From: Nitrosopumilaceae archaeon
GTDB lineage: Archaea; Thermoproteota; Nitrososphaeria; Nitrososphaerales; Nitrosopumilaceae
Direction of reading: 5' to 3'
NCBI GenBank assembly: GCA_965209085.1
Contig: OZ242376.1
Coordinates: 1,152,001-1,216,000 of the forward strand
Length of the DNA: 64,000 nucleotides
In this document: piece by piece, positions 7,901-36,618 of the stretch
How the letters are laid out: each line of letters begins with the position of its first letter
Numbering within the stretch: position 1 is the stretch's first letter
Notes under the pieces: generated by a model
What the model saw: only the letters and a program-made list of their open reading frames with translations
Databases searched by the model: none
Told to the model about the DNA's origin: nothing
Position numbers and translations under genes: made by a program

Positions 7901-10760
7901 CCACAGTACTAGTATCCAAAGTGCCGATGATTGTGGTAGTAAAGGTATCAGGATAGTTTGGGTCCCCATCAGTTATGATTACACCAGGGATGAACGGATC
8001 AGTTGAATTCAAAGGTACATTAAAAGATGAGGCGCCGATGAGTGATATTCTAGGTCCAATTGTGTCGATGAATACGTTGGAGGCTAGTGGTACGTCGTTT
8101 TCTGTCACAGATAGGGTTGCGCCATCATTGTTTACAACCTCTGCTGCAAAGGTTGCATACGATTCAGTTTGTACAGGAGGTACGGTTATTGTTGCACTAA
8201 AATCTGCACCGCTTATGGATACGGCGGGGGTTAATCCCAGTATTTGGCTTGTATGAGATGAGATTGTATCATTTATGGCAAATTGTATGGTGAGTGTATC
8301 GCCTGTTTTGGCATATTTGGGGTTTGAATTGTTGCTAGTTATGCCTATGGGTGATACAATTTCAAGCGGTGATGCATCCTGTACGCGTACAGTACGGGAT
8401 ATAGTGTTTCCTTGATTCCCTGCATAATCATCAGGTGCAGTATAGGTGAGCGTATAGGTTCCCATACTAGTTGTGGTCACAGATCCTGTTGGCAGGATGG
8501 TTTTATAGCCGTATGAGAGATCATAGGCTGTTGCATTTTTATCCGCATACGTACGATTCAGTATGGATACGGTATTGTTTGCACCGTTGAGTGTTATGTT
8601 TGGCGCCGTTGTATCAATGATGATATTCCCACTAGTCAGGTCATCTTGTGTAACTCTGATTGCGTAACTGCTTGAATTTATCACATATATGTCAAATGTG
8701 AGGTTGCCGTTTGTGTCGCTTTGCTCGATGGTTTTGTTCAGGTGTATTATTCCACCATTACCGGAGATTTCATGTGTAAAGTTGCCGCCAAGTATGTTGC
8801 CTGTTATACTTGTAATATCGGTGCTGACCGTGTTAATCTGAATTCTCACAGTATCGCCTGCCTTTGCATAATTGGTACTGTTCACTGAATTATTACTGCT
8901 CACGGTCAGGGCTGTGATGTCAAGTGGTCCATGGTCTATCACTGTCACGGTTCGGCTGACGCTTGTTTCAGGGTTTCCTGCCTCATCCGAATCTGCCGTA
9001 TACGTGTAGAGAATTACAGAGCCAATTTTACTTGTGTTCAAAGTGCCGTTTCTGGTGGTGCTAACAATGCCAGAATATTTTGGATCCCCATCGCTTGCAG
9101 TGGCGCCTGGAATGAACGGGTTTGTGGTGTCTACAAATACCGTATAGTTTGCATCCCCGATCAGTGTTATGCTAGGGGATATGGTATCGACAAATACGTT
9201 TTGAGTAGCCATATCATTCTGTGTTACAACAAGGTTGGAAGTTTGATTATTTTCAACCACTGCCCTAAAGTTTGCATATCCTTCCCGTTCGGTGGCCGGT
9301 ACAGTTATGCTAGCGGTAAAGTTTTGATCAGCAAAGTTTGATGATGCATCCAGGTCCAGTATTGTGGCATAACCGTTATCAATTGTATCATTTACTGTAA
9401 ATTTGACGGTCAGCGTATCTCCTGCTTTTGCGTATACCGGGTTTATATTATTGCTGTTTATTGACAAGATTTTTTCTTTGTTTGCAAATTTTATTATTTG
9501 GACGCCATCATCACCAAGGGATGCGACCAGCGCGTATACGGTATCATTCAAAGTAACGGAGGTAATGATATTTGGATCGTATAGTGTATCAAAACCATCT
9601 ACATTATCACGTATGCCATATACGGCAGATGGAGATGAGGGATCTGTAATGTTGATTATTTGGATGCCGTTATCAAAACTAGCTGTAACTAGTGCGTATG
9701 TGGCGTTTTCCAAAGTAATGGTGGTGATGCTGCGCGGGTGATCCAATGTATCAAACTCACCTACACCATCACGTATGCCATATACGGCAGACGGAGATGT
9801 GGGGTCTGTAATGTTGATTATTTGAACGCCAGACTCAGCATATGCTGCGACCAGCGCGTATACTGTGCCATTCAAAGTAACGATGGTGATGCCGAATGGT
9901 TGATGTAGTGTATCAAAACCATCTACATTATCACGTATGCTGTATACAGCAGACGGTGATGAGGGGTCTGTAATGTTGATTATTTGGATGCCGGGGGTAT
10001 TACTATTATAAGATACAACTAGTGCGTATGTGGCATCTTCCAAAGTAACGGTGGCAATGTCGCGCGGTGAGTATAGTGTATCAAAATCACTATTAGGTTT
10101 TATATTAAATGTGGGAGATGGCAATGATGGGTCTGTAATGTTGATTATTTGAACGCCGCTATCACCATAGGATGTGACCAGCGCGTATACGGCGTCGTTC
10201 AAAGTAACGGTGGTAACGGCAGATGGTCGTTTTAGCGTATCAAAACCACCTACATTATCACGTATGCTAGATACGGCAGACGGTGATGAGGGGTCTGTAA
10301 TGTTGATTATCTGAACGCCGTTCTCACCATAGGATGTGACCAGCGCGTATACGGCATCGTTCAAAGTAACGGTGGTAACGGCGAATGGTATATCCAACGT
10401 ATCAAAACCATCTACATTATCACGTATGCTATATACGGCAGACGGTGATGAGGGGTCTGTAATGTTGATTATTTGAACGGCGTCATCAGTATAGGATGTG
10501 ACTAGCGCGTATACGGCGTTGTTCAAAGTAACGGTGGTAATGCCTTGTGGATCCGATAAAGGATATTCTGCGCTATGGATTATGTTCGATGTGGGGTATG
10601 CGAACAGACCTTGGACTGTGACAATTGATAGTATTTGCGCGGCATTATTTTCTACCCCATATGCACGATTTACTGAGATATCCTGATCATCGTATACAAA
10701 TGGTGAAGTAAATGGTAGAGGCGATAGTAATATTAATATGATTATGAGTGCAACGTACAT
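1..10760 (-). CDS. Giant secreted/surface protein with LVIVD-type beta-propeller repeats and Ig-like/DUF5011-like modules; 3' end lies outside the window (>3586 aa)
   Basis: Missing from the ORF track because there is no stop in the window. ATG at 10760 gives MYVALIIILILLSPLPF (signal peptide), then repeats such as YALVTSY..GVQIINITDPSSP and DTxxPxIxLxG...YxxxDxAGN...RTVxV. The frame at position 182 matches the frame at 10760, and most antisense shadow ORFs lie in one frame. Confidence 0.9.
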   Translation of the reverse strand, partial: MYVALIIILILLSPLPFTSPFVYDDQDISVNRAYGVENNAAQILSIVTVQGLFAYPTSNIIHSAEYPLSDPQGITTVTLNNAVYALVTSYTDDAVQIINITDPSSPSAVYSIRDNVDGFDTLDIPFAVTTVTLNDAVYALVTSYGENGVQIINITDPSSPSAVSSIRDNVGGFDTLKRPSAVTTVTLNDAVYALVTSYGDSGVQIINITDPSLPSPTFNIKPNSDFDTLYSPRDIATVTLEDATYALVVSYNSNTPGIQIINITDPSSPSAVYSIRDNVDGFDTLHQPFGITIVTLNGTVYALVAAYAESGVQIINITDPTSPSAVYGIRDGVGEFDTLDHPRSITTITLENATYALVTASFDNGIQIINITDPSSPSAVYGIRDNVDGFDTLYDPNIITSVTLNDTVYALVASLGDDGVQIIKFANKEKILSINSNNINPVYAKAGDTLTVKFTVNDTIDNGYATILDLDASSNFADQNFTASITVPATEREGYANFRAVVENNQTSNLVVTQNDMATQNVFVDTISPSITLIGDANYTVFVDTTNPFIPGATASDGDPKYSGIVSTTRNGTLNTSKIGSVILYTYTADSDEAGNPETSVSRTVTVIDHGPLDITALTVSSNNSVNSTNYAKAGDTVRIQINTVSTDITSITGNILGGNFTHEISGNGGIIHLNKTIEQSDTNGNLTFDIYVINSSSYAIRVTQDDLTSGNIIIDTTAPNITLNGANNTVSILNRTYADKNATAYDLSYGYKTILPTGSVTTTSMGTYTLTYTAPDDYAGNQGNTISRTVRVQDASPLEIVSPIGITSNNSNPKYAKTGDTLTIQFAINDTISSHTSQILGLTPAVSISGADFSATITVPPVQTESYATFAAEVVNNDGATLSVTENDVPLASNVFIDTIGPRISLIGASSFNVPLNSTDPFIPGVIITDGDPNYPDTFTTTIIGTLDTSTVGSVIYTYTADSDAAGNSGMSINRTVSVIDYEPINITSLTVSSDNSNASGNYAKSGDVIRITLRTVGSDIGVATGSILGGNFTSNPFGGNTLFEKTITNDDTNGELTFSIHVTNSTGHGIRITQDDLTGENLIIDTIPPLLYLYGANNTVSHLGVPYADDGAYSYDTSYGKQNVSGTGAVNTNSVAEYVITYAVSDWAGNQRQITRTISVEILPEISLTNQIYSFLASPTSNVTKSAAYPHLEDPRNLEIAQIGGTTYALAIGYGGSSITILDISDPQSPSLVFSANTSTANYENLNGVIGISVIQIQSKTYAVTASLFSNSVTMMDITNPASPIVTSSIVNGTNYPFLNVPYSVSTVHIDNNAYALVPSYPNNWVAILDITNPASPIHVGVMKNGTDYALNGVQYVTTVNIDGSTYVLAASRNGNNIAIINISNPASPVQVHVISDSNGVDLELYHVIRIEILHQNGRIYALATGGDSGVQIIDITHMELPFPVSAVQNENGYPALVLAQDIATIRVGNSTYALAPSKPANAVQIIDITNPQLPQPVSAIGSNTDTSYLNDPYAIETVTINGDAYAVVTSRTSDGVQIIKLEHAIESIPSAFSIASNNSNDAYAKAGDTISMQLAVNDTISSYAVQFVNPSVSATTTSGINTINTLVTIPTVSIQGYANYTVSLENSFGVELNLTQDDIIGQNVFVDTIPPRIELIGPAQYTVFVGIQNPTIPGAKALDESPGYSVSNYTVASDPLNTSNIGDIVTYTYTANADAAGNLGASINRTVTVVDFDPIIFTSLIVNSDNSNSSYVKSGDVITITLVTDGSDIGNATGDILGDSFTASASGGSISLTKTVTQSDTNGNLTFDIYVTNSSDYAIRVTQDDLTSENIIIDTTAPNITLNGANNTVSLLNRTYADKNATAYDLSYGYKTILPTGSVTTTSVGTYTLTYTAPDDYAGNQENPISRTVRVQVASPIKFVSIFNDSPVATLDRGTDFNTINNAYYTSVNSFKINNVSYALMLDREFGNILIVNITNPASPSTVYENTSFTNGIAAFLAHDASIFTVNDATYAIAVNSLDRFWILNISNPESPFVILTIKNGTDYPKLDNLQGVTTVTINASVYALITARNDHSVQIVDVTNPSSPQPVSLITDGKDGYDQLNGALGITAIKIGSSIYALVAAVNDDGVQIIDITDPYNPQPASNITNGIGGYDKLDGTFRITAITIGSSTFALAATINDDSVQIIDITDPYNPQPASTITDGKGGYDKLNGAYHITTATIGTSVFALVAAFQDNSVQIINITDPYNPLPTSAIVDNENGYTNLQSPREISVITIDDLTYILVASYDEGIQIIKLGSSPIGITSNNSNPKYAKTGDTLTVQFTINDTISSHTSQILGLTPIVTIHDTNFNATITIPSTQTESYATFAVDITTNGGLSRTVTENDIPVNSNVFVDTIAPAISLTGPSLLLVPPGASDQFIPGAIATDGDSNYASTIIISTNTTFDTSVLGSVLYTYTAGSDVAGNTGNSVTRTVIVSNTMQQEIASLGIESSGIFAKSGDRVYTSLELTGFTPVSASGSLIGENITPSGSKFTLNTRVSDQSPNGNATFYYTLENAAGDVLYVSNYDITDGSYVTIDTIRPAISLFGTDNVSIAKGSTFTDLGAVATDVSYEDTIVNGTGTVNTNVAGTYTLNYAAPADGAGNLGNTVSRTVNVLDVAQLVLDAKFIHSPSGTLTRGTDFSTEILSDTINLFETSGKTYALIAEVSAGAWIIADVTNPALPSIVYNNTFFTPALKTSIFTIDNTQYVIAAGGIGTTSIIDISSPASPSIIATLVNGTDYPRLYNAQSVTTVTIGASTFALFASAHPTNGVQIIDVTNPHSPSHVYYLTDDTDGYLELAGAFDITTVTIGASVYALVASNNDDGVQIIDITDPYSPLPASSVTDGIGGYDTLRNPISITTVTVGSSVYALVASFHDNGVQIINITDPYNPSNASSVTDGMDGYDTLYGPYGITTVTIRSSVYALVASNFDDGIQIIDITDPYNPKPASSIMDNTDGYVNLERSRGVITATINGTTYAFIAANDEGLQIIKLESTQLVISSNNAKPIYAKTGDTLTVQFTINDTISSHTSQILGLNPAVSLSGADFSATITVPPVQTESNATFVIQVTNAEDITLFVTESDISQSNNVFIDTIGPGISIIGSPSFTVPMGTANPLIPGALTSDGDPNYKNTFTTSANATLNTSVPGSVVLYTYTADTDGAGNLGNSVTRTVTVSDAAQPEITSLSITILGSGSDNFAKTGQTTLVTLDLTGFTPSSASGMLLGVNVSPVISGNRVTFNTQVSDQSLNGNATFFITLQSTGGNFLHVSNYDITDGSYVTIDTIKPAISLLGLDTVNIVRGDAFTDSGAVATDISYEDTVVYSSNTVNVDTLGTYTLTYAAPTDSAGNTGNTISRTVNVLNAAQLVLETKLIHSPSGTLTRGTDLNTTNNARHTSVNSFKINNVPYALMLNRESGSIIIVNITNPASPSLVYENTSFTNGTAPFSANDASIFTVNDTTYAIAVNELDRFWILNISNPESPFVILTIKNGTDYPKLDRLHGVTTVTIDASIYALITARNDHSVQIVDVTNPSSPQPVSLITDGMGGYDQL
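5004..8720. repeat. Near-identical duplicated Ig-like module: ~5004-5360 vs ~8367-8720
   Basis: Shared long stretches such as GATTCCCTGCATAATCATCAGGTGCAGTATAGGTGAGCGTATAGGTTCCC. Confidence 0.9.
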
Positions 10761-11841: not shown

Positions 11842-12918
11842 TCATCCACCGCATTTCTCACGCAATACATCCCTTGCCTTTTGCAACGCCTCATCATTTG
11901 GAGTAATCTTCAAAGCCATATCTGCACATTCAAGTGCCTTATCATTCATCCCAAGTTTTACATAACAAAATGATTTCTCACTCCATGCTGCAGCGTAATC
12001 TGGTTTGACTTTTAATACAGCATTATACGCATCTAATGCCTCATGATACTGTCCCATACGGGATAACGCATTTGATTTACCATGCAGTGCAAGCATATTT
12101 GTAGAATCCGTCTGCAGCACCACATTAAAGCACTCTAGTGCTTTTTTATAATTTCCATAGTGTGCTAGAACATTTCCCCTGCTTGCCAAAGCATTTGTGA
12201 AACTTGAATCAATCTCCAATGCCCGCTCATAGCAGGATAATGCCTGCTCGAATTCACCCATGCTGTAGTGTATGTCGCCTTTGGCGTGAATTTCAGCTGG
12301 ATTATTAGGTGCCATTTTCATTGCCAAATTATTGTATTTTATCGCATTTTCATGATCACCTGATCTTAGATATATCTGCGAGATAAACTCTAGTGCATCA
12401 AGATTATCCGGCGAACATTTTAGAATTTTTTGTACAGCATTTATGCTCTCCTTTGGCCTATCTAGCATATCTAACGCATATGCTTTGTTAAAAAGTGCCA
12501 TAACACTTTCAGGTTTTAATTTCAACTCCATCTCAGAGTATTCAATTGTTTTCTCATAATGCCCCAAATTCCGGCAGATTGTGGCAATTGAATGCATAAT
12601 GGCAGGATCCGGCCTTGTGGACAATGTTTTTTTATAAATCTCCAATGCCTCCTCAAAGTGCTCGCCCACAAGCAATATCGTGGCCTTGTTGCAAAGGGCC
12701 TCAAAACTATTCGGATCTATTTTTAGCGCATCATTTACGTATTTTAAGGCGTTTGTACTCTGTCCAATCTTATGGTATGCCGTAGAGGCGTTTATCAGTA
12801 CGGCAATGTTGTTTTTTTCAACCTCTAGTATTTTCTCATAGTATTCTATGGCCTTTTCATAATTGCCAGATAAAGCGTGATCATATGCTAAATCAATCCA
12901 TTCTTCCATCTCGCTCAT
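11842..12918 (-). CDS. TPR-repeat protein (about 10 repeats)
   Basis: Repeated G.YE.A..YY.K.L...P.....A motifs along the whole length; 4-bp overlap with the upstream ATPase gene. Confidence 0.9.
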   Translation of the reverse strand: MSEMEEWIDLAYDHALSGNYEKAIEYYEKILEVEKNNIAVLINASTAYHKIGQSTNALKYVNDALKIDPNSFEALCNKATILLVGEHFEEALEIYKKTLSTRPDPAIMHSIATICRNLGHYEKTIEYSEMELKLKPESVMALFNKAYALDMLDRPKESINAVQKILKCSPDNLDALEFISQIYLRSGDHENAIKYNNLAMKMAPNNPAEIHAKGDIHYSMGEFEQALSCYERALEIDSSFTNALASRGNVLAHYGNYKKALECFNVVLQTDSTNMLALHGKSNALSRMGQYHEALDAYNAVLKVKPDYAAAWSEKSFCYVKLGMNDKALECADMALKITPNDEALQKARDVLREKCGG

Positions 12919-15900
12919 GAATCATCACCTTTTAGATCCTCGCTCTTTGAGGCTGATTGTCCATGCTGTTTATTTGGGGATGCTTTGGGTTTATAGTCAT
13001 CGGGTAAATCCACTACAAACGTGCGTACCTTGTCATACCCATCATCCAATTCCTCGCGTATTTCCTCAATTTTCTTACTAGAAGACCAGACATGGCACAT
13101 ATCAAAACCAAGTTTTATCCATTTGCTCATGTTAAATTTGACGTGCTCTGGATGCGATTTAACCTCGGTCTTTGATTCAATCTCAACTGATACGGACAAA
13201 CCAGTTGAATAATCATATGCTACAAGGTCTGGCCTTAAATCCCCGCTTTGTATTGCAAAGCATACAAACCATCCTTTTTTTCTATAGTAATCGACTGCCT
13301 GCTGCGCTATAAGCGGCGTCTCCTCGGACCTGCCAATCAGATAATAATTCAAATCAATGTACGCATCAAGTGCTCTTTTACTTAGAGAATATATGGGACT
13401 GCGCTTTACCTTTGGGTTTGGCATCTTTTGCACATACTCTAAATCATTTAAAGATGCCAAGGATGCAGATACATCATCGCGTGTGGATGCATTTACACCC
13501 CGGGTTATCTCAATTAGAATGTGGGGTCCATCTTGCAGATACAGGATTATCCTCCATTCCATTTCATACGGTAATGTTTGTGTGCAAGATTCCATCCATT
13601 TTTTGGTGCTGCGGGCCATTTCATCAGAGTTTGATGAATCTTGTATATCCTCAGGCTTTATTCCATATCTCTCCTTTGATGTTGTAATTATCTGCTGCAC
13701 CTGCATATCGTCAAGTTTGGGAATGGGGGGAGGCAGGGAATTTGTATAAGCTGGCATTCCAGATTCGTGTCCATCCGGCGCTTTTTGCCGTATGAAAAAC
13801 GCATGATCTGCCAATCCTGCAAGTGAATCGCGAAGTTTTTCAGAGTATGCTGGATCCACCATTAGTGCAATTTTGGATGCATCAAAGCCGGATAATCTGC
13901 CAAATATCATAGTAGAGCAATTCCCCATTATTCCCTCTAGTATTTTTCTCTCAATTTGTGAGGCATTCTGGTGTGCCAATATGAGGCCAAGTCCGTACCC
14001 TCTTGCCTGTGCAAGCAAAGTTCCGATAAGACCCATGTGCCCTATGCGCTGAAACTCATCAAGTGCCAAAACTACCGGAGTACGCTTGGTTCTGTCAGTT
14101 TCTGCAGCCCGTTTTTTTACAGCATGCCAGATTTTTGAAACAAGGGACATTAGTAAGATCTTGTGTGCATCCTCGGGAGTATCAGTGTCACTTATGCGGA
14201 TTAAAACCACAGTGCCGGGTTTTAATATTTGGCTGAATTTTACCGTCGTTTTTCTAACTCCAAAATGGCGGCGCAGATATTTATCAATTACAAACGGCTC
14301 TACGCGGTTTAGTATCGGAGTCCATGCATCAAATCTCAAGGATGCAGCTGACTCTAATGCCTGGATGAATTCTTTATTTGGAATGCGGTATTGGCGTTTT
14401 ATGCGCTCCAGTGCCCCGTTTTTTTTAAACAACATTACAAGATTATGCAAATCAGCCATGGTTGGAGAGTCTATGTTGTGGTATAAGAGCTGCAAGACCA
14501 GCTTGAAGAGCCGCTCCATTTGCACAAATGTCTGCGTTTGAGAGTAAAATTCCTTGAACATTTCAAGTATATGATCCACCATGAAGGAGACTGTTACGTC
14601 TCTTTCACCGTTTTTGTGCTCTGGGAGCTCTAGCAGATTTATTCCAAAATCCGTCTTTTTTATGTCCAAAAGGACTACATTTATGCCAGGCGGGGTGCAT
14701 TTTATAAATTCAAACGTGTCATCATCTTTGTTATCTATGCCGATATACGTGCACGGCATATCTGATGCAATTGATGCTATGATATGCGAGTAGAGGTTTA
14801 AGAGCAGTGTTGTTTTACCGCATCCAGATGATCCTAGAACGTACGTATGCCGGATTAGATCCTGAGGATCATATACTGTAACTTTGGATGTGGCTTTGAG
14901 TATTTGCCCGTATTGTACATTTTCTGCATTTATTTTCTTGTCAGTTCCTAAAATCCAGCCGCTGCGTTCAGGCGTGAGTGACTCATGATGCGGCCTGTTG
15001 TATCTTAACGGGAGTGCCTCATCGTATGGCATGTGGCATACAGTGTCTGTTAACTCTTTGGCAGTAACGCAAAAGAACGGAACCATGTCGCGGCCTCTGC
15101 CCCATTTTCCATCTTGCCATATTTTCTCATTGCGATATAGTTGGTTTATTGCCTCATCATCATATAGGATTCTAGACTTTAGATACTGTTCAAAATATTG
15201 GTGGCTCGGATACTGCATTAGGATGCCGCTATCCTGTTTTGAGCGCAGCTGTTTAGCTAGGCTTTGCATGATTTTCAGGTTTGCATCATACTCGTCTGCT
15301 TCAAAGATTCCGCGTATTCCCATTACGCAAAGATTCTCCTGTTCTCTTTGGATGTAATCCGGATATGCTATGCGCATGAATTCGGGTATTTTTTTATCGC
15401 TTGGGATTTTCACCTGGCGGTAGTTTGGTTTGAAATTAGAGCCCAAAGATCCCTGCAATTCAACCTTATCTTTTGTAATGTCAGTTATTGCATCCTGTAG
15501 TGCACTCAAATGCCTGCTGCATGCAGTATCAATTCTCTCATCGCGTACAAATAAAATCTGAATCCATGCATAGTTCATCTTTGAGATAGCCGAGATGATT
15601 GACTCTAGAAAATCAGTACTGTCATCACGCATGGGTGAAAAACTAAACATGTGTGAGAGCTCTATATCAAATGGTATTGTTTTTTTAGGTTTGCCTGCAG
15701 GTTCTGTCTGCTCTAGTATTTCATAATTTACAACGTTTAGCGAATTTGCGAAAAATTTCATATCGCCTTTAGGAGCTCCCAAGATTATACGCACTTGCTC
15801 AGATTGTGGCTCTTTCCATAATTCATATGCCCTTATTCTGTCAGTTACGATAGTTCTAGTTGGCTCTAATTTTTTACCAAATGTCGGATAAGCTTCTGCC

Positions 15901-16073
15901 AATTGTATTTCATATGCTGTGTGATTTGGAGGTTTTCTCATATTGTGCATGCCGCCGCCAAAAAAGTCAGGATCTAGTACTTTGATGGTTTTGCCGTTTT
16001 CTTTGATTTTTATCCATTTTTCAATTTGTACTAATCTGCCCAGCCAGTCTCTTTTGTATTGATGCCAAATCAC
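12915..16073 (-). CDS. HerA/VirD4-like (DUF87) P-loop ATPase with C-terminal winged helix and putative PD-(D/E)xK-like domain
   Basis: Walker A GSSGCGKT, Walker B LALDEFQ, QARGYGLGLILAHQ (Arg-finger/sensor segment); C-terminal RPDLVAYD...VEIESK. Confidence 0.8.
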   Translation of the reverse strand: MIWHQYKRDWLGRLVQIEKWIKIKENGKTIKVLDPDFFGGGMHNMRKPPNHTAYEIQLAEAYPTFGKKLEPTRTIVTDRIRAYELWKEPQSEQVRIILGAPKGDMKFFANSLNVVNYEILEQTEPAGKPKKTIPFDIELSHMFSFSPMRDDSTDFLESIISAISKMNYAWIQILFVRDERIDTACSRHLSALQDAITDITKDKVELQGSLGSNFKPNYRQVKIPSDKKIPEFMRIAYPDYIQREQENLCVMGIRGIFEADEYDANLKIMQSLAKQLRSKQDSGILMQYPSHQYFEQYLKSRILYDDEAINQLYRNEKIWQDGKWGRGRDMVPFFCVTAKELTDTVCHMPYDEALPLRYNRPHHESLTPERSGWILGTDKKINAENVQYGQILKATSKVTVYDPQDLIRHTYVLGSSGCGKTTLLLNLYSHIIASIASDMPCTYIGIDNKDDDTFEFIKCTPPGINVVLLDIKKTDFGINLLELPEHKNGERDVTVSFMVDHILEMFKEFYSQTQTFVQMERLFKLVLQLLYHNIDSPTMADLHNLVMLFKKNGALERIKRQYRIPNKEFIQALESAASLRFDAWTPILNRVEPFVIDKYLRRHFGVRKTTVKFSQILKPGTVVLIRISDTDTPEDAHKILLMSLVSKIWHAVKKRAAETDRTKRTPVVLALDEFQRIGHMGLIGTLLAQARGYGLGLILAHQNASQIERKILEGIMGNCSTMIFGRLSGFDASKIALMVDPAYSEKLRDSLAGLADHAFFIRQKAPDGHESGMPAYTNSLPPPIPKLDDMQVQQIITTSKERYGIKPEDIQDSSNSDEMARSTKKWMESCTQTLPYEMEWRIILYLQDGPHILIEITRGVNASTRDDVSASLASLNDLEYVQKMPNPKVKRSPIYSLSKRALDAYIDLNYYLIGRSEETPLIAQQAVDYYRKKGWFVCFAIQSGDLRPDLVAYDYSTGLSVSVEIESKTEVKSHPEHVKFNMSKWIKLGFDMCHVWSSSKKIEEIREELDDGYDKVRTFVVDLPDDYKPKASPNKQHGQSASKSEDLKGDDS

Positions 16074-16326
16074 GCATTATAATGCACTTTGTAATAAAAA
16101 AGGTTATTGATCATTTAAGCGGTAATTATACATAAAGTATGCCTATTAATGCAAAAATTATACAGATATGTACGTGTAAGATGAAAATATGACACTGGGT
16201 CTATTTTAGTATAAAATATTCTTTTAAAAATCATATGAATATCATGATCGTATTAGATCATAAATATGAGATTAAAATTTTAAGTTCAGCATAATTTTTA
16301 AAATTTTGATAAAAATACAATAATTG

Positions 16327-16570
16327 GTACCTGTCTAGAGTTTTGAAGTTAAATTGGATAGATATTCTTCCAAATAATCATGAAAGTTCAGATTCCTCAA
16401 CCTGCACGTCCCCTTTATGCTCATCAATATCATGTGAGCTTTGGCTCCATCCTCTGAGCGGTGAGCATTTGTAATCTTGCGTATTACGACATTTGGTCAA
16501 ATCCCCTCTCTCGGCGGTATTGTTGTGTCAGTCAGTACCCGTTTTTTAGAAACGTAAAGGGCACATCTTT
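16327..16570 (-). mobile_element. IS66-family 3' remnant (different subtype)
   Basis: Minus strand reads HNNTAERGI.PNVVIRKITNAHRSEDGAKAHMILMSIKGTCRLRNLNF with lesions. Confidence 0.65.
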
Positions 16571-16573
16571 TTC

Positions 16574-16946
16574 TCGCACGTCCGATTTGCATCAGAGAGT
16601 AATATTTCTGAATTTTACCAACGTCTTGCAAAAAAAAGAGGATCATCCAAGGCCAAAGTTACAGCAGCTGCCAAGATGCTTGATATCATATTTCGTATGC
16701 TAAAGGATAGGAGTGAATTTGAAATACATCATAGTTAAAGCAACAAACCGCGGGTTAGACTTTGGGGATGTTACCCCGGCTGCATAACTGCGGTAAGCTT
16801 TAACATGTGGATAAAGATGGTTGTTGAATTAAATCCCGAATGGATAGATGTTTTTTCATCTTTTGGTTGGAAACAGACACATAGCGAAAGCCATGCCGCA
16901 TGACACAAAAAAGCAAGAAACCCTTAAAATGTATTCACATGGATAA
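16574..16946 (+). mobile_element. IS110-family (IS1111-like) 3' remnant: transposase C-terminus plus non-coding end
   Basis: Reads SHVRFASESNISEFYQRLAKKRGSSKAKVTAAAKMLDIIFRMLKDRSEFEIHHS* (stop 16736-16738), homologous to the 20320 ORF; same terminus CACATGGATAA. Confidence 0.85.
16739..16946 (+). ncRNA. Putative IS110 bridge/seek RNA (copy 1)
   Basis: Stem CCGCGG/CTGCGG enclosing two 10-nt loop strands and hairpin GGGG-ATGTTA-CCCC; second loop with ATGGTT and ATGGATA; conserved with 20112-20319. Confidence 0.7.
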
Positions 16947-17009
16947 GGTCTAATGATTTCACACCATTGAATCATTTTCAAACAAATAAACCTCGATTAT
17001 ATGTAAAAA

Positions 17010-17657
17010 TCAATCTTTGGGAATTATTGCATTTTTTATATCTGTGTCTACCTTATCTTTATTACTCACAATAATTTGTCTACAAATTGGTCCGGAAGTC
17101 CATGCGTCTCGAACTTCACGGTTCTCTTGATATATTTTAGCAATGTTATTAATTTGTTCATTAGTAAAATAAGAACAATCACTCAAAAATTTTGCATTAG
17201 CATTTGCTTCCCTATAACTTGTCGACGTTTTGAGTGTTTTTATCTGTTCATCTAATGCCAATACACCGTCATTTACATATCGTATCAATCCATGACTTAG
17301 TTCATTAATTTCGGAATTTTTTATTTCAGGAGATATTATTTTAGCATGATATTGTCGCATAAATCCATATGGTTCCAGGTCATCAATACGAACAGTATAA
17401 ATTCTCTTATTATTTGCTATGGCATATCCAACTTCATGATCAGTGTATTCTGCACTACGAAAATTATTTGATAGTAAAACCATAAATAATTCACATTTTT
17501 CTATTTGTGCTTTTAATTCATTTAACCAAATATCTGATATGATTAGATCCTTGGAAGATATGAAAACGTCTATGTTTTGTTCGCTGAGTTTATCGTGAAG
17601 TGTATTGGCCACTTCTTTATCCTTATCTGCATAACTAAGAAATACACTGACCATCAT
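17010..17657 (-). CDS. TIR-domain protein
   Basis: VFLSYADKDK, DVFIS..DL, FMVLLS.NF..AEYTDHEVGYA (catalytic Glu position). ATG at 17657 preferred over the TTG at 17702. Confidence 0.85.
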   Translation of the reverse strand: MMVSVFLSYADKDKEVANTLHDKLSEQNIDVFISSKDLIISDIWLNELKAQIEKCELFMVLLSNNFRSAEYTDHEVGYAIANNKRIYTVRIDDLEPYGFMRQYHAKIISPEIKNSEINELSHGLIRYVNDGVLALDEQIKTLKTSTSYREANANAKFLSDCSYFTNEQINNIAKIYQENREVRDAWTSGPICRQIIVSNKDKVDTDIKNAIIPKD

Positions 17658-17733
17658 AATTTGTATTAAATTATATGATATGTAAGTATAGTGATACGCC
17701 AAAGTTCATGAGCGTTTGACCGTTTATGTATAC

Positions 17734-18992
17734 TAGATGTCTTACGTAATAAAAAATTCGGCATAACAATATATTGTGCCTAATAATTAAAGTGTTATGT
17801 TAAAAAATCACATTCTGGAATATGATTTACAGTTAATCTAAGACAATACGCCACATGTCAATTATGTGATCACCGTTTGCAGTAATTCATGTTGGAACAA
17901 TGTAGGTTTGCAAACCCACGCGACAACATGTACATCTGGTCAATATCGGGCGTGCAGTATGATGTTATAATGAGCGTGCCCACTCATTTTTGTAATTTAT
18001 TAATCCGTTTACAACCTGCACGATTCCATCATATTTATCAAATCGTGATCGGAATACATCTCGGCGTATGTTGAATTTCTTAATTCTGCTGTAAACATGT
18101 TCTATCCGTACACGTACGCTTGAGAGTAATTTATTGTGAAATATTTGTTCGCGGGTTCTCTTTTTATTTTTATATTTTTTACAGGGTATGATCGAATTTG
18201 CTTGTGGAAACGCGTCATGTATTCCCTGATATGCACTATCATAGAGATTTGAAACAGAATTCAACAGATCCTGCGTAATTTTGTTTTCACACTGCAGTGG
18301 GTGGTTCTCTTTTACAATGGCATAATCGTGTACACTGCCAGGATATGACATTGAGCTATACAAGATCATTCCGTTTCCGTTTATGACTTCTGTTGTTTTT
18401 CTGGTATGTGTTTTGTGCTTGCCAGAATAGTTTTTCTTTTGTTCTTCCTTGTCACTTGGACGCCATACCCGTTGTTCGGTAGCATCTGTAACGCAATAAT
18501 TGTCAGGAAAATTCTTTTCAAGATCTTTGGAAGATTTTATTTCTAAAACTTGTTTGTGTAGTTTATGTGGAGTTGGAAGAATATCTGCCAATATCTTTAG
18601 AATCATGCCTATGTTTCGTTGTACATTACTTTGATCCAAGTCAAACATGTATCCTATTTTTTCATACGACTGGTATTCTCGTAAATAAACAAGCGTCATT
18701 ATTAACCGATCTGGCAGTGACAAGTGATGTTTCCTGCCTCCTCCTGGACTTCGTTGTCTTTCTGCTGCATCTGCAACATCCAGCTGGCATTCAAGATATT
18801 TTTTACGTATGCCAGGAATCAAGGAATCAAATTCTTCGACCGTAAGACCGGTAAACGCCTTGAATGCACGCGGTTTTTTGCGCATTGTCGTTTCTGAGAA
18901 CACAAAACACAGTAAACATGCATGAAAATAGATCGATGTGATCTAAAAGTTTGGACTGCATGATTGAATTTCTTTATTACGCAAGGCATCTA
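17734..18992 (-). mobile_element. IS5-family (ISL2-like) element, apparently intact
   Basis: TIRs TAGATGTCTTACGTAATAAA / TTTATTACGCAAGGCATCTA flank a full transposase ORF. Confidence 0.85.
17965..18903 (-). CDS. IS5-family transposase (HTH_Tnp_4 plus DDE_Tnp_4 type)
   Basis: FTGLTVEEF, DATEQRVWRP, YSGKHKTHT, GSVHD, YDSAYQG, RVRIEH. Confidence 0.9.
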   Translation of the reverse strand: MFSETTMRKKPRAFKAFTGLTVEEFDSLIPGIRKKYLECQLDVADAAERQRSPGGGRKHHLSLPDRLIMTLVYLREYQSYEKIGYMFDLDQSNVQRNIGMILKILADILPTPHKLHKQVLEIKSSKDLEKNFPDNYCVTDATEQRVWRPSDKEEQKKNYSGKHKTHTRKTTEVINGNGMILYSSMSYPGSVHDYAIVKENHPLQCENKITQDLLNSVSNLYDSAYQGIHDAFPQANSIIPCKKYKNKKRTREQIFHNKLLSSVRVRIEHVYSRIKKFNIRRDVFRSRFDKYDGIVQVVNGLINYKNEWARSL

Positions 18993-18994
18993 CT

Positions 18995-20113
18995 ATACTG
19001 ACACGCAAAAGTAACTGCAATTTATGACTCTAGGCACAATGTAACCGCAAGATATTTGGATCACCTCGTGTATGAATCAATCATGAACAAAGAACATCAG
19101 GAACTGTATAATGCAAGCAGGCATGTCAAAGATGTACGAGAAAACGAAAAAATACATTTTGTAAGCATGGTCAAATACCAAAACATATCCATAGCTAAAG
19201 CTTCTGAATTATTGATGAAAAGCTACAACTGGGGCAAAGAATGCATGCAACGATATGACGAGCTTGGATTAGACGGTCTTAAAATCCTGCCCAAATCGGG
19301 CAGGCCTTTATTATTATCAAATATACGATTTAAAAAAATTATTGACATGACAAGACGAGAGAACGGTTCAGTTGATCCAAAACAGGTAATGCACAACATT
19401 AAACGCAAAACCGGAGTAAAATATCACATATCAAATATCAAATATCAGAAAAAGACTCCACAAATTCTCATGTCAGCAAGGCTCCAAAAAGAATTCATGT
19501 CAATGCAGCGCCAGCATCAGTCTGCTACAACGGGTCACAAAACACTAGGCGTCAAATACGCCTACTTGAAGAGCGTGGATTTGCAGTAGGCGTTCAGGAT
19601 GAATGTATAATAAAATACGATTCATTATCCGGCAAGAAACTCTGGATTGAAATAAGCAAAAATTGTTACGTAAAATCCACAGGTTCTCACAAAAAAGTTG
19701 TTGTCTTTGGAGTACTCTTATAGGATGGCAGGCAGATGTTTGCAAGCTTTGATTTGTTTGATGCAAAACCATTTCTCAAATTTTTAAAAATGGCTCATCA
19801 AAAATTTGGAAAAATTTGCATGATTGTGAATAAAGCTGCACAACACAGAAAATCCAAAATTATTAAAAAATATATCTCCGAGCACAAAGATGAGGTAAAG
19901 CTTTTGTTTTTCCCAAGTTTACCGTTTCTGAGTGCCGTTGAAGAATGCTGGCATCAGGCCAAACGTGTGTTGGTCGTCTCTGAATATTATGAAACATTTG
20001 AGAATATGAAATACGCAATTTCAGAATATTTTAGAACTGTACGATTCAAAGTATCAATCATGGATTTTATTATGAGAAAAGCTGCAGAATGCAGTTACTT
20101 TTGATCCGCAGTT
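18995..20113 (+). mobile_element. IS630-family element, degenerate (ORF fragments 19056-19589 and 19736-20104)
   Basis: TIR core CAAAAGTAACTGCA at both ends; GLDGLKILPKSGRP, QDE, PFLSAVEECW. Confidence 0.85.
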
Positions 20114-20319
20114 ATCCATGTGCCTCTTTTTTAAGTATTTCATGCGTTTTTCCATATTTTTGTACAGTATCCACTAGGGGCTATTTTTCCAATTAAAGAA
20201 TGAGAGACATATATCCATTCGGGGCATTATCCCCACAACCATCTTCATCCACTTGTTAGAGCTTACCGCAGTTAGAATCTCGGAGCACTATCTCCATATA
20301 CTGCGCCGCGGCCGTGCAA
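20112..20319 (-). ncRNA. Putative IS110 bridge/seek RNA (copy 2)
   Basis: CCGCGG-CGCAGTATAT-GGAG ATAGTG CTCC-GAGATTCTAA-CTGCGG, then ATGGTT-GT-GGGG ATAATG CCCC-GA-ATGGATA. Confidence 0.75.
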
Positions 20320-21441
20320 CTAACTGTAATTTTGTTCAAAATCCCGATTCTCCTTTAGCAACCAGTAAATCACCTTTAGCATTTTTCCAGCTGCTGCAAC
20401 TGCAGCCTTAGAGTTTCCTCTCTTTCTTGCAAGCCGCTTGTAAAATATTGAAATGTCACTTTTTGGTGCATGCAGTACGTGCGAGCGTATTGCCTCAACT
20501 AGAACCCACCTGAGCATTCTGCTTCCTCTTTTTGTTATGTGTCCATGATGTACGAGATTGGCAGAATTGCGGACCGATGGTGCAAGTCCTGCGTATGATT
20601 TTAGCTTTTCAGGATCAGAGAATCTCTCAACATTATCAATCTCAGATGCAATCGTTAATGCCGTAAAATCTGCAATTCCGGGGACAGTTTTGAGTATATC
20701 GGCATACCGGCTTGTACGTGCACTCTTGTAGATCAGTACATTGGCTTTTTGTATCTGATTGTCATAAAGGCCAACGGATGCAAGAAAACCGTCTATTCGA
20801 TAGTCGTTTATGGCTTAAAGGCTTGCAATGTATTTGTACGAAAACGTACGTCCTGGAATTTTAATTCCTTTTTGGAGCAGTATTCCATGTATGGAATTTT
20901 TCATATTTGTTCTCGCCTGTACAAGTTTGTGCCTGTATCGGACCAGTTGTCTTTGCTCTACAATCTTTTTACCTGGAACATGGCACTCGTTGATATATCC
21001 TCCTCGCAGCAAATTTGCCAAAATTTGCGCATCAACTTTGTCTGTTTTTTTAGTGGATGCGGCAATGGCCTTTGTCTGATATGGGTTTGAGAGAATCACA
21101 TCAAGATTTAGTCTATCGGTCATGTATCGGAACAGTCCGTACCAGACAGATGATGACTCCATTACCATCTTTGAACCCTCTGGTATGCTTGTTTGGAAAA
21201 ACTTTCTAATGTCCGCGTGTCTGTTTTCAACACGCGTGTTTAAGATCAGTTTGCCTTTGCCGTCAATTGCTGCTATCTGGAGAAATTCTTTATGGGCGTC
21301 AATTCCAACAAACATGGATTTCCTATTAAATGCCCTAGTGTTTTTGTTTGCATTTTGGGCTTTGTTTTTGGGCTTGCGTTTGTTGACTAATACGGATTTA
21401 TCATTTAAGCAACCATCTGAATTCCTTGATTTCTTGGGCAC
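20320..21441 (-). pseudogene. IS110 DEDD transposase with one in-frame TAA (20815-20817)
   Basis: VGIDAHK, MESS, KTDKVDA; the same frame continues after the stop with LKTVPGI, SYAGLAPSVRNSA, GHITKRGS. Confidence 0.9.
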
Positions 21442-21687
21442 ATATGGTTAGGTATGCTACGTTGACATTTTAGTATTATTGCTATTGCATTAATTTCATT
21501 AATCATACCAGGCACACATTTAGCATATGTGTTTTATTCAGAATCAGATGATCTATACAATGGTGATCAATACAATACAGATCAGTTTAAAGATAAATTA
21601 TTAGCATTAGGCACATTTTTGCCATTTCTCAGAAATGATATTTTTCAAGTTGAATTAACATACGGTTATGATGCAGTGGGATTTTAT

Positions 21688-22211: not shown

Positions 22212-22407
22212 TTAGTAAAGTTTGCCCGCAAATCAAATAGCACGTTTTTGTGCACACGGCCACGTATAATATTCTGTTTTTTGCCATGTATGTGACATTT
22301 TGATTTATTTTGTTGTCTGTTTGAGAACATTATTCACTATGCGTTTTGATCATGACAACACCATAATCAAAATTGTATGTCACTGTGATTGATTATGCAT
22401 AAACTCT
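22212..22407 (+). mobile_element. 3' end and TIR of the IS5-family element found at 31844-33198
   Basis: KVCPQIK* followed by a 3' UTR alignable to the reverse complement of 31844-32030; ends ATTATGCATAAACTCT. Confidence 0.8.
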
Positions 22408-24056
22408 AATGGCATTATGAAACTGGTTCTTGTTGGAATATTTAATTTCAGAATATTCCATTTTTTCCAATCATCTAAATATGCACGTTGTAGGATAAGA
22501 GCTTGTTGTTTAACGTTGATGGCAATTGTATAATTAATATTACAGTCTAGCGCTTTATCAAAACAATTAATTGCATCATTAAAATTTAATTTTAATATAG
22601 AAAATAATCCTTTTTCTGTATATAATTGTGGATCACTTGGATTAATTTTAATCGCTGAATCATAAAATTTTAATGTATTTACATCATCATTCATTTGCAT
22701 ATACATTCTAGCTATTCCAATATAAGCATGTGATTGGTTTGGATTAATTTCTAAAACTTTTTTATGAAAATTGATTGCATTTTCAAATTCCATGATCCTA
22801 GATAATGCCATTGCATGCAGCATATATGCCTCCTCATATTTTGGATCTAGTTTTACCATTAATTTACAATATTTTATAACATCATGAAATTTATTTTGTC
22901 GATATAAAATATTACATTTTCCTGCATACGCAAATATTTCATTAGGATCTAACTTTAAAGCCTCATCGTAACATGCTAATGATGCATCGAATTCTTTGTG
23001 ATTTAGTAATAATGTGCCTTTTGCAATATGTGCTATTATGTAAGTTGGTTCTAAGTGGATTATTTTATCATAACATTCTAAAGATTCTTCTTTACGATTA
23101 AGTTGTTTTAAAGCTCGTGCTTTTCTTATATATGCAAATATGTATGTTGCATCTAATTCTATAGCTTTATCATAACATGCTAGTGATTCATCAAATTTAT
23201 TCATAGCTTGTAATGCATCTCCTTGATACACATACGCGTCTATTATCGATGAATCCATATCTATTATATTTGTGAAACATGTGTACGCCTCGGAATAATT
23301 TAATAAATCGTATAATGCATTTCCTTTATGCATATATGAAGATATGTCATTAGGTTTTAATTCTAACGATTTATCATAATACATTATAGCTATAGAATAT
23401 TTTTTATTTTTATAATATTCATTACCTTTTATTCTACATTTGTTATTATCTTTCATCATGTTAACTTCCTTCATAATAGATTCTAATACATCCTGTGGCT
23501 CTTTTAGATTTTGTGTTGTTTTAATATCTAATACATCTGATTTTATATTTTCAATACCAGACATCATATTAACTATTATTTCCTTATTATTATTATAATT
23601 ATAATGTGATGCCATAGAATATGATGCAGATTCAGGATTTTTTTCAGCATAAATTATATGATCTTTCAATAATTGTTTTTCGTTAACAAATGATTCTGAA
23701 TCCATATCTATAGATATTATTCTTATAGTTGTTATGTCAAATGGAATATTGGTCGACATATTTTTTCTTTTAACAATTATTGTTGGTTTAATTTGTGCAT
23801 GCCTAAGCCCTAATTCATACATGACATTAGGATTATTTCCCGAAATATCTGCAATAACTATATCTGACATGACTAATTTTTCCATAATTTGGTTTGGTAA
23901 CGATCCCGGTTGATTTATTTTATCAGATCTTAACACAACATCATAATTTAATTCTTGTAAAACTGGAGAAAATATTTTATTAAATATTATATCGGATGTT
24001 ATACGAATATTACTTTCTTCTTTATCTAACGGTGATATGACGAAACAAGATTTCAA
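22380..24056 (-). CDS. Nucleoside 2-deoxyribosyltransferase-like (TIR-like fold) domain fused to TPR repeats
   Basis: N-terminal CFVISP...RSDKI..PGS...SDIVIADISGNNPNVMYELGLRHA; about 9 TPRs follow; the last ~9 codons come from an IS end. Confidence 0.8.
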   Translation of the reverse strand: MKSCFVISPLDKEESNIRITSDIIFNKIFSPVLQELNYDVVLRSDKINQPGSLPNQIMEKLVMSDIVIADISGNNPNVMYELGLRHAQIKPTIIVKRKNMSTNIPFDITTIRIISIDMDSESFVNEKQLLKDHIIYAEKNPESASYSMASHYNYNNNKEIIVNMMSGIENIKSDVLDIKTTQNLKEPQDVLESIMKEVNMMKDNNKCRIKGNEYYKNKKYSIAIMYYDKSLELKPNDISSYMHKGNALYDLLNYSEAYTCFTNIIDMDSSIIDAYVYQGDALQAMNKFDESLACYDKAIELDATYIFAYIRKARALKQLNRKEESLECYDKIIHLEPTYIIAHIAKGTLLLNHKEFDASLACYDEALKLDPNEIFAYAGKCNILYRQNKFHDVIKYCKLMVKLDPKYEEAYMLHAMALSRIMEFENAINFHKKVLEINPNQSHAYIGIARMYMQMNDDVNTLKFYDSAIKINPSDPQLYTEKGLFSILKLNFNDAINCFDKALDCNINYTIAINVKQQALILQRAYLDDWKKWNILKLNIPTRTSFIMPLEFMHNQSQ

Positions 24057-27614: not shown

Positions 27615-27635
27615 ATATCCATAGGGATTATTTAT

Positions 27636-28522
27636 TAGATGCCTTGCGTAATAAAGAAATTCGATCATGCAGTCCAAACTTTTAGATCACATCGATCTAT
27701 TTTCATGCATGTTTACGGTGTTTTATATTCTCAGAAACGATAATGCGCAAAAAACCACGTGCATTCAAGGCGTTTACCGTTCTTACGGTCGAAGAATTTG
27801 ATTCCTTGATTCCGGGCATACGTAAAAAATATCTTGAATGTCAGCTGGATGTTGCAGATACAGCAGAAAGACAACAAAGTCCAGGAGAGGCATGAAACAT
27901 CACTTGTCACTGCCAGATCGGTTAATAATGACGCTTGTTTATTTACGAGAATACCAGTCGTATGAAAAAATAGGATACATGTTTGACTTGGATCAAAGTA
28001 ATGTACAACGAAACATAGGCATGATTCTAAAGATATTGGCAGATATTCTTCCAACTCCACATAACCTACACAAACAAGTTTTAGAAATAAAATCTTCCAA
28101 AGATCTTGAAAAGAATTTTCCCGACAATTATTGCGTTACAGATGCTACCGAACAACGGGTATGGCGTCCAAGTGACAAGGATGAGTAAAAGAAAAACTAT
28201 TCTGGCAAGCACAAAACACATACTAGAAAAACAACAGAAGTCATAAACGGAAACGGAATGATCTTGTATAGCTCAACGTCATATCCTGGCAGTGTACACG
28301 ATTATGCCATTGTAAAAGAGAACCACCCACTGCAGTGTGAAAACAAAATTACGCAGGATCTGTTGAATTCTGTTTCAAATTTCTATGATAGCACATATCA
28401 TGGAATACATGACGCATTTCCACAAGCAAATTCGATCATATCCTGCAAAAAATATAAAAACAAAAAGAGAACCCATGAACAAATATTTCACAATAAATTA
28501 CTCTCAAGCGTACGTGTGCAGA
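27636..28522 (+). pseudogene. Truncated, frameshifted copy of the IS5 element at 17734-18992
   Basis: Near-identical DNA with the same left TIR; stops and frameshifts; cut by IS630 at 28523. Confidence 0.9.
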
Positions 28523-31653: not shown

Positions 31654-31843
31654 GTATTTATTTGTATGAGGTCAGCTATTAAACGACACTGAACATATCT
31701 TCAAAGACGCTTTTACCGTGTGCATTCCACATCAAAACGCACGTTAAAAAGTTTAACATTCTTCTCATGGATTCAGATCCTCTGATCTGTCCGCTTATCT
31801 TACGGCGAACCACGACATCTCGTAATGCCCGCTCGGCTGCATT

Positions 31844-33198: not shown

Positions 33199-33337
33199 AT
33201 TGTTTGTAGGTGGGATGTTTTCATGCTCTATAAAGGTAAACAGATTCATCGTCGCATCCTCCAACCGTTTGATCAAACTCTGCATTTCGGACATTTCTGT
33301 ACTGCGGTATTTATCTAACATGACATCAAGTGTGTAT

Positions 33338-36309: not shown

Positions 36310-36509
36310 ATGGATATGATACCAGAGATTGTTTTGGCAGCATATTTGATAACACGCGCTCTGGCAAATATTTTCCCTGGGAAATGGAATTTTAGACGTT
36401 TGTATTGTTCCTGGAGGCATTATCCAAAGCTACTCAAAAATCAAAATATCATAACTTTGGAAATTCTGGCGTTGTTCAATCAGATTTAATGTAGCATAAT
36501 CACGCCATT

Positions 36510-36589
36510 AGACTTTTTATACATAATGGGCAAAATTCACAATTTTTACGAGTAAAAATGACAGATTTGAACGATTATGCATAAAGTCT
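36510..36589. mobile_element. 80-bp MITE-like element with IS5-type TIRs
   Basis: AGACTTTTTATACATAAT ... ATTATGCATAAAGTCT resemble the TIRs of 31844-33198. Confidence 0.6.
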
Positions 36590-36618
36590 AATAAATAATA
36601 TATCCCACATATAACAAT

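Follow-up and report, generated by a model that had tools for sequence, protein, structure and literature searches.

RNA guidance of insertion has been demonstrated experimentally for members of the IS1111 and IS110 groups of insertion sequences (IS; PMC11187229, PMC11208160; here and below, papers given by PMC number are cited from excerpts). In these excerpts, elements of the IS1111 subgroup have a non-coding end downstream of the transposase gene, a short left end and subterminal inverted repeats, whose length is given as 7–17 bp (PMC11208160) or usually 11–13 bp (PMC11187229), and in their seekRNAs the match to the top strand of the target lies 5′ of the match to the bottom strand (PMC11187229, section 9). 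Here we describe an element of this type, subtype A, in a window of 64,000 nucleotides (nt; the whole stretch of DNA analysed, contig OZ242376.1, positions 1,152,001–1,216,000) of a single-contig 1.69-Mb genome (G000) with 41% G+C. The genome carries an archaeal amoA gene and the nearest named relatives of the transposase, at about 50% identity, belong to Nitrososphaeraceae and Nitrosopolaris metagenome-assembled genomes; the host is therefore taken to be an ammonia-oxidising archaeon. Subtype A very probably homes, by means of an RNA guide, into the tip of the terminal inverted repeat that a resident IS5-like element shares with its MITEs (miniature inverted-repeat transposable elements), and the copy in the window (copy 1) is its dead remnant.

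By BLAST, subtype A was found at about 19 loci of the genome, giving 17 right ends and 12 left ends. The left junction reads ...TATGCATAA and then CCATATG in 11 of the 12, and 14 of the 17 right junctions show an exact GGATA followed by NNNTCTA in register, the other three having one substitution (AGGTCCA, AACTTTA) or a 1-nt deletion. Past the 7-nt tip, the DNA differs in 16 of the 17 right junctions, the single duplicated pair being 728323/959195. This junction sequence corresponds to the inverted-repeat tip common to a resident DDE_Tnp_4 (IS5-like) IS and its 80-nt MITEs. Left flanks correspond to either end of the MITE (eight cases) or either end of the 1.35-kb IS5-like element (three cases), insertion is orientation-specific, and the tip variants that follow subtype A are CGGTCTA, AGGTCTA, AACTCTA, ACCTCTA and TGGTCTA. 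The target elements in the window are the following.

31843–33199, minus strand: intact IS5-like (DDE_Tnp_4) element of 1357 nt with a 390-codon open frame; ATTATGCATAAGGTCT (33183–33198) lies at its right end.
33186–33199 (plus strand) and 31843–31856 (minus strand): unoccupied target sites of this element.
36506–36590, plus strand: MITE of the IS5-like family; its right end holds the only perfectly matching 14-mer of the genome (36578–36591).
22395–22408, plus strand: unoccupied repeat tip ATGCATAAACTCTA, on a fragment of an IS5-like element.

An initial annotation of the window, made from copy 1, had proposed that the element homes into the ends of another IS family. Once all genomic copies had been mapped and an empty site rebuilt, this proposal was upheld by the junctions, by the empty site and by the guide/target covariation described below; the same loop next to an unrelated sequence was seen at most once (1 of 12 left junctions, CAGTTATAA). 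The strings quoted in that annotation, namely the loop strands, the flank AGGTCTA-AT, ATTATGCATAAGGTCT at 33183–33198 and TGCATAAAGTCTAA at 36578–36591, were all found in place. Its assignment of the target to the IS5 family needed some adjustment. The transposase, encoded between inverted repeats of about 17 nt, passes the Pfam cut-offs for DDE_Tnp_4 (76 bits) and HTH_Tnp_4 (27.7 bits), whereas it scores 62.9 and 38.4 bits against NCBIfam IS5 models with cut-offs of 140 and 110, so that "IS5-like" is the accurate label.

Rejoining the flanks of the intact copy 157646–156313 gave the sequence of an uninterrupted MITE (1111176–1111255) in 80 of 80 positions. The intact MITE reads ATGCATACGGTCTA and the occupied site ATGCATA[A CCATATG...GGATA]CGGTCTA; the insertion had split ATGCATA^CGGTCTA 7 nt from the repeat tip with no target duplication, the sole ambiguity being the shared ATA. 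A match of 8–9 nt at a single flank, in a genome of 41% G+C, might be a chance likeness of short A/T-rich words between the copy 1 loop and its flank or the IS5-like repeat, and by itself the 8-nt match is indeed insignificant. Chance is nevertheless hardly conceivable as an explanation, as it is excluded by the 12 left and 17 right junctions, which are decisive (11 and 14 exact, with three further right junctions one change away), and is also refuted by the 80/80 empty site. In addition, the 14-mer TGCATAAAGTCTAA occurs once in the 1.69-Mb genome, both strands considered, with about 0.03 occurrences expected from base composition, and this one occurrence is located in a MITE end.

The same distribution could in principle result from a few insertions, after which composite MITE::IS110 units were copied by the IS5-like transposase or by duplication, with no repeated independent homing. 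In line with this, copies 260080, 157646 and 694890 are 98–99% identical across about 1420 nt that include the MITE, and the right-junction pair 728323/959195 has identical flanks and is a duplication. However, uninterrupted MITEs of the same subfamily are equally alike, one of them being the 80/80 match to the rebuilt site, and the high MITE identity therefore needs no co-mobilisation. Moreover, IS110 is found in at least four contexts (two MITE ends and two full-IS ends) and is followed by five different tip variants, and a sister lineage in another species targets the same repeat at a shifted position with matching guides. Altogether, we consider copying of composites an improbable origin of the pattern. 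No target duplications were recognised around MITE::IS110 composites and plain MITEs beyond the TA within the repeat, which is uninformative with respect to composite mobilisation.

Copy 1 itself is a dead 3′ remnant of an IS1111-type IS110-family element and is incapable of moving, since about 967 nt are missing and its donor loop is damaged. All of its parts lie on the plus strand.

16578–16945, plus strand: copy 1, a subtype-A relic of the IS110 family that keeps the last ~370 of 1335 nt.
16578–16738, plus strand: C-terminal ~53 transposase codons and TAA stop (16736–16738), residues 320–372 of the intact 373-aa protein.
16748–16793, plus strand: predicted target-binding module, delimited by single-sequence fold, consensus fold, pair counts and guide pairing.
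16748–16753 (CCGCGG) and 16788–16793 (CTGCGG), plus strand: outer stem of the target module, read from the sequence.
16754–16763, plus strand: 5′ loop strand of the target module, candidate right-target guide, GTTAGACTTT.
16764–16777, plus strand: inner hairpin of the target module (GGGG 16764–16767, hexaloop 16768–16773, CCCC 16774–16777).
16778–16787, plus strand: 3′ loop strand of the target module, candidate left-target guide, GGCTGCATAA.
16809–16853, plus strand: predicted donor-binding module (alignment columns 65–111).
16923–16945, plus strand: right terminus, with an A/T-rich octamer (mutated, CTTAAAAT), TTCACAT (16934–16940) and GGATA (16941–16945).
16946–16954, plus strand: right flank AGGTCTA-AT, the outer 7 nt of the IS5-like/MITE inverted repeat and then unique DNA.
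16320–16577, plus strand: first ~258 nt of a different repeated element, joined to copy 1 where its 5′ side is truncated.

The relic is 94–95% identical to positions ~968–1335 of full copies (genome BLAST, with the right end aligned with 16 others), and G000 1168574–1168732 is 94% identical to residues 320–372 of the intact 373-aa transposase. The non-coding end measures 200 nt and terminates ...TTCACATGGATA; the element ends ...CACATGGATA, its last nucleotide being 16945. In the donor module, the 3′ loop strand AAUGGAUAGA repeats the right end CATGGATA, and two substitutions disrupt two inner-hairpin pairs. As the initial annotation had recognised, the left end is deleted: IS110 homology begins at 16577/16578, at about position 968 of the 1335-nt element, where it is fused to the 258-nt fragment. 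This fragment has seven other copies at 91–95% identity, all of which extend past the point at which the window switches to IS110 sequence. The same repeated element also interrupts another IS110-A copy at its nucleotide 165 (genome 1622673–1623087).

We then compared loop strands with flanks. The 5′ loop strand of copy 1 (UUAGACUUU) forms nine of nine pairs with its own right flank AAGGTCTAA, eight of them Watson–Crick and one G-U, and the 3′ loop strand (UGCAUAA) reads as the left flank in the sense direction. The overlap between the target guides is AA and falls within the ATA(A) common to target and donor; the order of the guides is that published for IS1111 seekRNAs. Within the genome, the guide UUAGAGUUU (GAG) is present in four copies, all four at (A)ACTCTA tips (CTC flanks), and the guide UUAGACUUU (GAC) in nine distinct copies, six of which are at GGTCTA-type (GTC) tips; with these few and related copies, the association of guide with flank gave p = 0.07 (two-sided) and p = 0.049 (one-sided) in Fisher's exact test. 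In a congeneric genome (G001), ten copies of a sister lineage could be parsed, drawn from 28 matches, and all ten occupy the homologous repeat at a point 6 nt deeper (GTCAATA^TGCATAAGGTCTA). There, the 5′ strands UCUUGUGCAU, UCUUAUGCAU, UCGUAUGCAU and UUUUAUGCAU face ATGCATAAGG, ATGCATAAGA, ATGCATACGG and ATGCATAAAG, respectively, with contiguous pairing runs of 10, 7, 2, 10, 10, 10, 10, 8, 8 and 8. Across eight lineages, runs between own guide and own flank were 6, 10, 8, 8, 10, 10, 7 and 4, against mostly 1–4 for unrelated flanks. Covariation of guide and target is thus present within the genome, in the congeneric genome and in more distant relatives. Regarding the second module, the G or A of its 3′ strand (AUGGAUA/AUAGAUA, column 100) tracks the right end CACATGGATA/CACATAGATA, that is CACAT(G/A)GATA, in 10 of 10 rows, which is why we consider this module to be the donor-reading loop.

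Recognition of the repeat tip by the transposase protein alone, with the complementarity of the 3′ end being incidental or otherwise employed, was weighed against these data. The link between RNA and targeting is based here on sequence, and the left guide match is short (3–4 nt) in some lineages. Nonetheless, guides shift together with targets across lineages whose transposases are 50–60% identical, while the stems stay paired. Besides, another lineage in the window, subtype B, combines the same scaffold with another loop and another target element, its 10-nt guide being exact in three of four copies. In view of these data and of the experimental precedents mentioned above, recognition by protein alone appears very improbable, and we infer that the RNA is made and bound and that it is the RNA that chooses the site.

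The fold was assessed on an alignment of ten 3′ ends from five lineages (three of subtype A, two of subtype B, three from G001 and one each from G002 and G015). RNAalifold returned two similar modules, each with an outer stem, an internal loop of about 10+10 nt, an inner stem of 4–5 bp and a small apical loop. On this consensus structure 94.9% of cells were paired, compared with 37–50% after sliding the 3′ partners by 1–3 columns. Double changes, on both sides, occurred in six pairs, and the observed covariation score was reached by none of 500 shuffles, which ignore relatedness. Single-sequence folds recovered the first module in both A and B. The 3′ end of copy 1 is accordingly predicted to fold as a two-module RNA resembling bridge RNAs and seekRNAs. 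An E-value search of 16600–17000 against Rfam gave only chance-level matches, mir-586 (E 1.4) and a long non-coding RNA (E 9.9).

A mechanism consistent with these observations can be outlined. The element would move as an excised circle, which the DEDD/serine recombinase would insert under the direction of an RNA encoded by the 3′ non-coding end of the same element. Right of the crossover, the top strand (AAAGTCTAA, or AAGGTCTAA with one G-U) would be paired with the 5′ strand of the first loop, GUUAGACUUU; left of it, the bottom strand would be paired with the 3′ strand of that loop, UGCAUAA. The second loop would read the element's own joined ends. The site so specified would be ATGCATA^A(A/G)GTCTA, 7 nt inside the tip of the IS5-like/MITE terminal inverted repeat. 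The case draws on family membership, on insertion at specific sites, on the clean empty site, on conservation of the RNA fold and on the covariation of guide with target and with donor.

Several observations weigh against it. One of the 12 left junctions is atypical and reads CAGTTATAA, its right flank still being AGGTCCA. Three of the nine distinct GAC-guide copies are at CTCTA (CTC) tips, so that the association of guide and flank is imperfect; this is expected, because the site of a copy is picked by the RNA of its parent. Most copies are broken, an open frame of 373–375 codons being present in only two of the seven full-length subtype-A copies examined, out of about 19 loci overall, and much of the insertion pattern is therefore historical. 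Single-sequence z-scores are unremarkable (−1.6 for A and +1.1 for B), and no Rfam match was obtained over the window at gathering thresholds. Finally, the index searched, which returned 17 runs, lists no RNA run for the organism, and no circle junction was seen. In runs X1–X4, a contig of X4 was evaluated as an empty site of L010 (depth 4.4, side 36, 90% likeness, skipping 1416 nt that comprise the IS and the MITE). It was rejected because it is too weak and may come from another organism; contigs of X1–X4 break at repeats.

The family assignment relies on the intact 373-aa transposase, which matched PF01548 (DEDD_Tnp_IS110; 97.7 bits, cut-off 29), PF02371 (Transposase_20; 77.1 bits, cut-off 21.3) and NCBIfam NF033542, "IS110 family RNA-guided transposase" (218.6 bits, cut-off 140). 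Two solved bridge recombinases, ISCro4 (E 2e-8) and IS621 (E 6.6e-6), are relatives of this protein. In the alignment with ISCro4, GMDVHK, VMESS, KTDKRD and the S of GLAPSVRNSA face GIDVSK, CMEAT, KTDAVD and the S of ESG, although the N-terminal part of the alignment is weak (i-Evalue 3.9); these positions may represent the DEDD residues of the catalytic site and the serine of the C-terminal part. The element, 1335 nt in length, has its GTG start codon 7 nt from the left end, and its long non-coding sequence lies entirely downstream of the transposase gene. From the outer RNA stem to the right terminus there are about 200 nt in all lineages. The subterminal inverted repeats, ATGTGAA/TTCACAT in A and ATGTGCC/GGCACAT in B, covary between the subtypes; at 7 bp they are at the lower bound of the published range, and the two terminal extensions sum to 10 nt, as in the published 7+3 geometry. 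On the basis of the GTG near the left end, the 7-bp subterminal repeats and the downstream non-coding end, we assign subtype A to the IS1111 type of the IS110 family.

The right end holds an A/T-rich octamer (TTTAAAAA, CTTAAAAA, TTTATAAA or TTTATTAA) at a constant position, recognised by eye in eight of eight lineages and by regular expression in six (window 16923–16945 and 20113–20135; loci L001, L004, L011, L012, L013, L019, L025 and L026). Joining the right end to the left end gives the following.

Expected circle junction, rebuilt from the right and left ends: ...CACATGGATA-ACCATATGTG...

In the rebuilt junction the octamer starts 29–30 nt upstream of the GTG start codon, a distance that fits an archaeal TATA box preceding a leaderless mRNA. 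The octamer may therefore be the TATA box of a leaderless transposase mRNA made only from the excised circle, in which case expression of the transposase would depend on a promoter assembled across the circle junction. A promoter and terminator scan of 16300–17100 with bacterial models, which are unsuited to an archaeon, found sites no more numerous than in shuffles.

As for the consequences for the target family, one search pattern returned 87 unoccupied tips, 45 with the ATA core and 42 with ATG (ATGCATG), a variant that alters the shared ATA core. Fifteen occupied right junctions keep ATA, and none requires a G-type origin. The three occupied full-length IS5-like elements belong to an older, diverged group and two of them have open frames. 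It is reasonable to infer from the geometry that insertion immobilises the IS5-like element, because the outer 7 nt of the repeat are parted from the rest by 1.3 kb. Against immobilisation of the family speak two young subfamilies that are intact and free of IS110, one of which has fully susceptible ends: the ATA-type subfamily comprises six copies at least 98% identical with intact 390-codon frames, and the ATG-type subfamily six copies 99–100% identical with intact genes. We also considered that ATG variants thrive while ATA elements are suppressed; with both subfamilies young and intact, the data neither support nor exclude suppression or escape. Nesting also occurs in the reverse direction: at genome 558905–561651, a young ATG-type IS5-like copy (559668–561061) sits inside an IS110-A copy, which itself lies in the end of an older IS5-like copy within another IS5-like element.

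The window contains a second IS110-family copy, subtype B, which was termed copy 2.

20113–21448, minus strand: IS110-family subtype B (copy 2), 1336 nt, with the same RNA architecture and different guides; in-frame TAA in the transposase gene.
18994–20112, plus strand: IS630-like element; the right end of subtype B directly adjoins its right tip (...GATCCGCAGT).

The reverse complement of the subtype-B 5′ strand, ATATACTGCG (10 nt), is the exact right flank in three of the four copies; in the window copy, the match of guide and flank is off by a 2-nt deletion. This flank is the terminal TATACTGCGG... of the IS630-like element, and four of seven IS630-like right ends are occupied. As subtype B abuts the tip and leaves the repeat unsplit, it is not expected to disable the IS630-like element. 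All four subtype-B transposase genes have an in-frame TAA at the same codon (window 20815–20817, minus strand; genome 856654, 730183 and 666549), where subtype A has lysine. Its presence in all four implies that the stop predates the spread of subtype B, that this lineage is mobilised in trans or that the stop is read through. A third IS110 lineage, subtype C (genome 1299995–1301207), is 33% identical to A, has one TAA and is bordered directly by a MITE tip on one side and by the terminal repeat of an IS3-like element on the other; the flanks of two partial relatives are different.

With regard to targets, the IS5-like repeat is split by subtype A at 7 nt and by the congeneric sister lineage at 13 nt from its tip, the tip of the IS630-like element is the docking point of B, and the third lineage is placed between the end of a MITE and that of an IS3-like element. 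One could see in this a "hyperparasite" layer of RNA-guided IS1111-type elements, each programmed against the ends of a different DDE family, with guides and tips co-evolving, ATGCATG tips as escape alleles and the activity of the other transposons lowered. We regard this broader scenario as rather unlikely.

With respect to the surroundings, the relic is flanked by a 1052-aa TraG/VirD4-like coupling ATPase (12915–16073, minus strand; TraG-D_C, T4SS-DNA_transf) and by a 230-aa TIR-domain protein (17010–17702, minus strand; TIR_2, weak ThsB_TIR match), and may be part of an integrated conjugative or defence island. About one third of window positions 16000–37000 is IS or MITE sequence. This includes a second DDE_Tnp_4 element, with a 312-aa transposase, present as an inverted pair (17965–18995 and 27633–28524) that is 95–97% identical and about 9 kb apart, the 27633–28524 copy being frameshifted. 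There are also two giant frames in the window, 3–10760 (minus strand, more than 3586 aa), composed of 162-nt (54-aa) tandem units and larger 2.2-kb repeats, and 42575–51172 (minus strand, 2865 aa).

Taken together, the genome offers an unusually complete genomic case of programmable targeting, with the guide, targets by the dozen (both occupied and unoccupied), one exact empty site and tracking variants side by side, and the sister species provides what looks like a natural "reprogramming" of the same scaffold by 6 nt. It also supplies archaeal IS1111-type scaffolds with 10+10-nt loops, clear guide registers and a predicted RNA whose length, about 200 nt, is conserved. How such elements are currently understood to work is unchanged; the question raised is whether an IS family that inserts in the ends of another restrains that second family. 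A literature search, which was limited to one collection of papers and did not cover the supplementary target tables of PMC11187229 and PMC11208160, retrieved no description of ammonia-oxidising archaea in which IS110 or IS1111 elements insert into the ends of IS5-like elements or MITEs; in PMC13343696, IS110 receives a single passing mention.

Among described systems, ISPpu9 and ISPpu10, IS110-family elements that insert into repetitive extragenic palindromic (REP) sequences, likewise use a dispersed genomic repeat as landing site, but in the present case the targeted repeat serves as the working end of a different mobile element (PMC12288879, from excerpts). With IS621 and ISCro4 (Durrant et al, 2024; PMC11208160), subtype A would share the DEDD and serine recombinase, a two-loop RNA with one loop for the target and one for the donor, and a short core common to target and donor without target duplication. 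It differs from them in encoding the RNA in the right instead of the left end, with the guide order reversed, in a core within ATA(A) instead of CT, and in its internal loops of 10+10 nt.

The resemblance to ISEc11, ISKpn4 and ISPa11 (Siddiquee et al, 2024; PMC11187229) extends to the non-coding region downstream of the transposase gene, to short matches to both target strands that overlap at the crossover with the top-strand match 5′, and to the GL-P----S motif, here GLAPSVRNSA. Their targets are attC or REP-like sequences whereas those described here are transposon ends; their motif ends in SG or TG, and here in SA; and the present element is known from sequence alone.

A close parallel is with IS4321 and IS5075, which target Tn21-family repeats (Partridge & Hall, 2003, by its title; PMC11187229, section 13). 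They are likewise of the IS1111 type, occupy one fixed position and orientation inside the terminal repeat of another transposon, and have subterminal inverted repeats and a 3′ non-coding end (PMC11187229). In contrast to them, the host here is an ammonia-oxidising archaeon, the target is a DDE_Tnp_4 IS with its MITEs and not a Tn3-family transposon, the subterminal repeat is only 7 bp, and several lineages within the one genome are aimed at different IS families. The behaviour is thus already known from bacteria, and by analogy we interpret subtype A as an archaeal counterpart of IS4321/IS5075 that would act by the seekRNA/bridge RNA mechanism.

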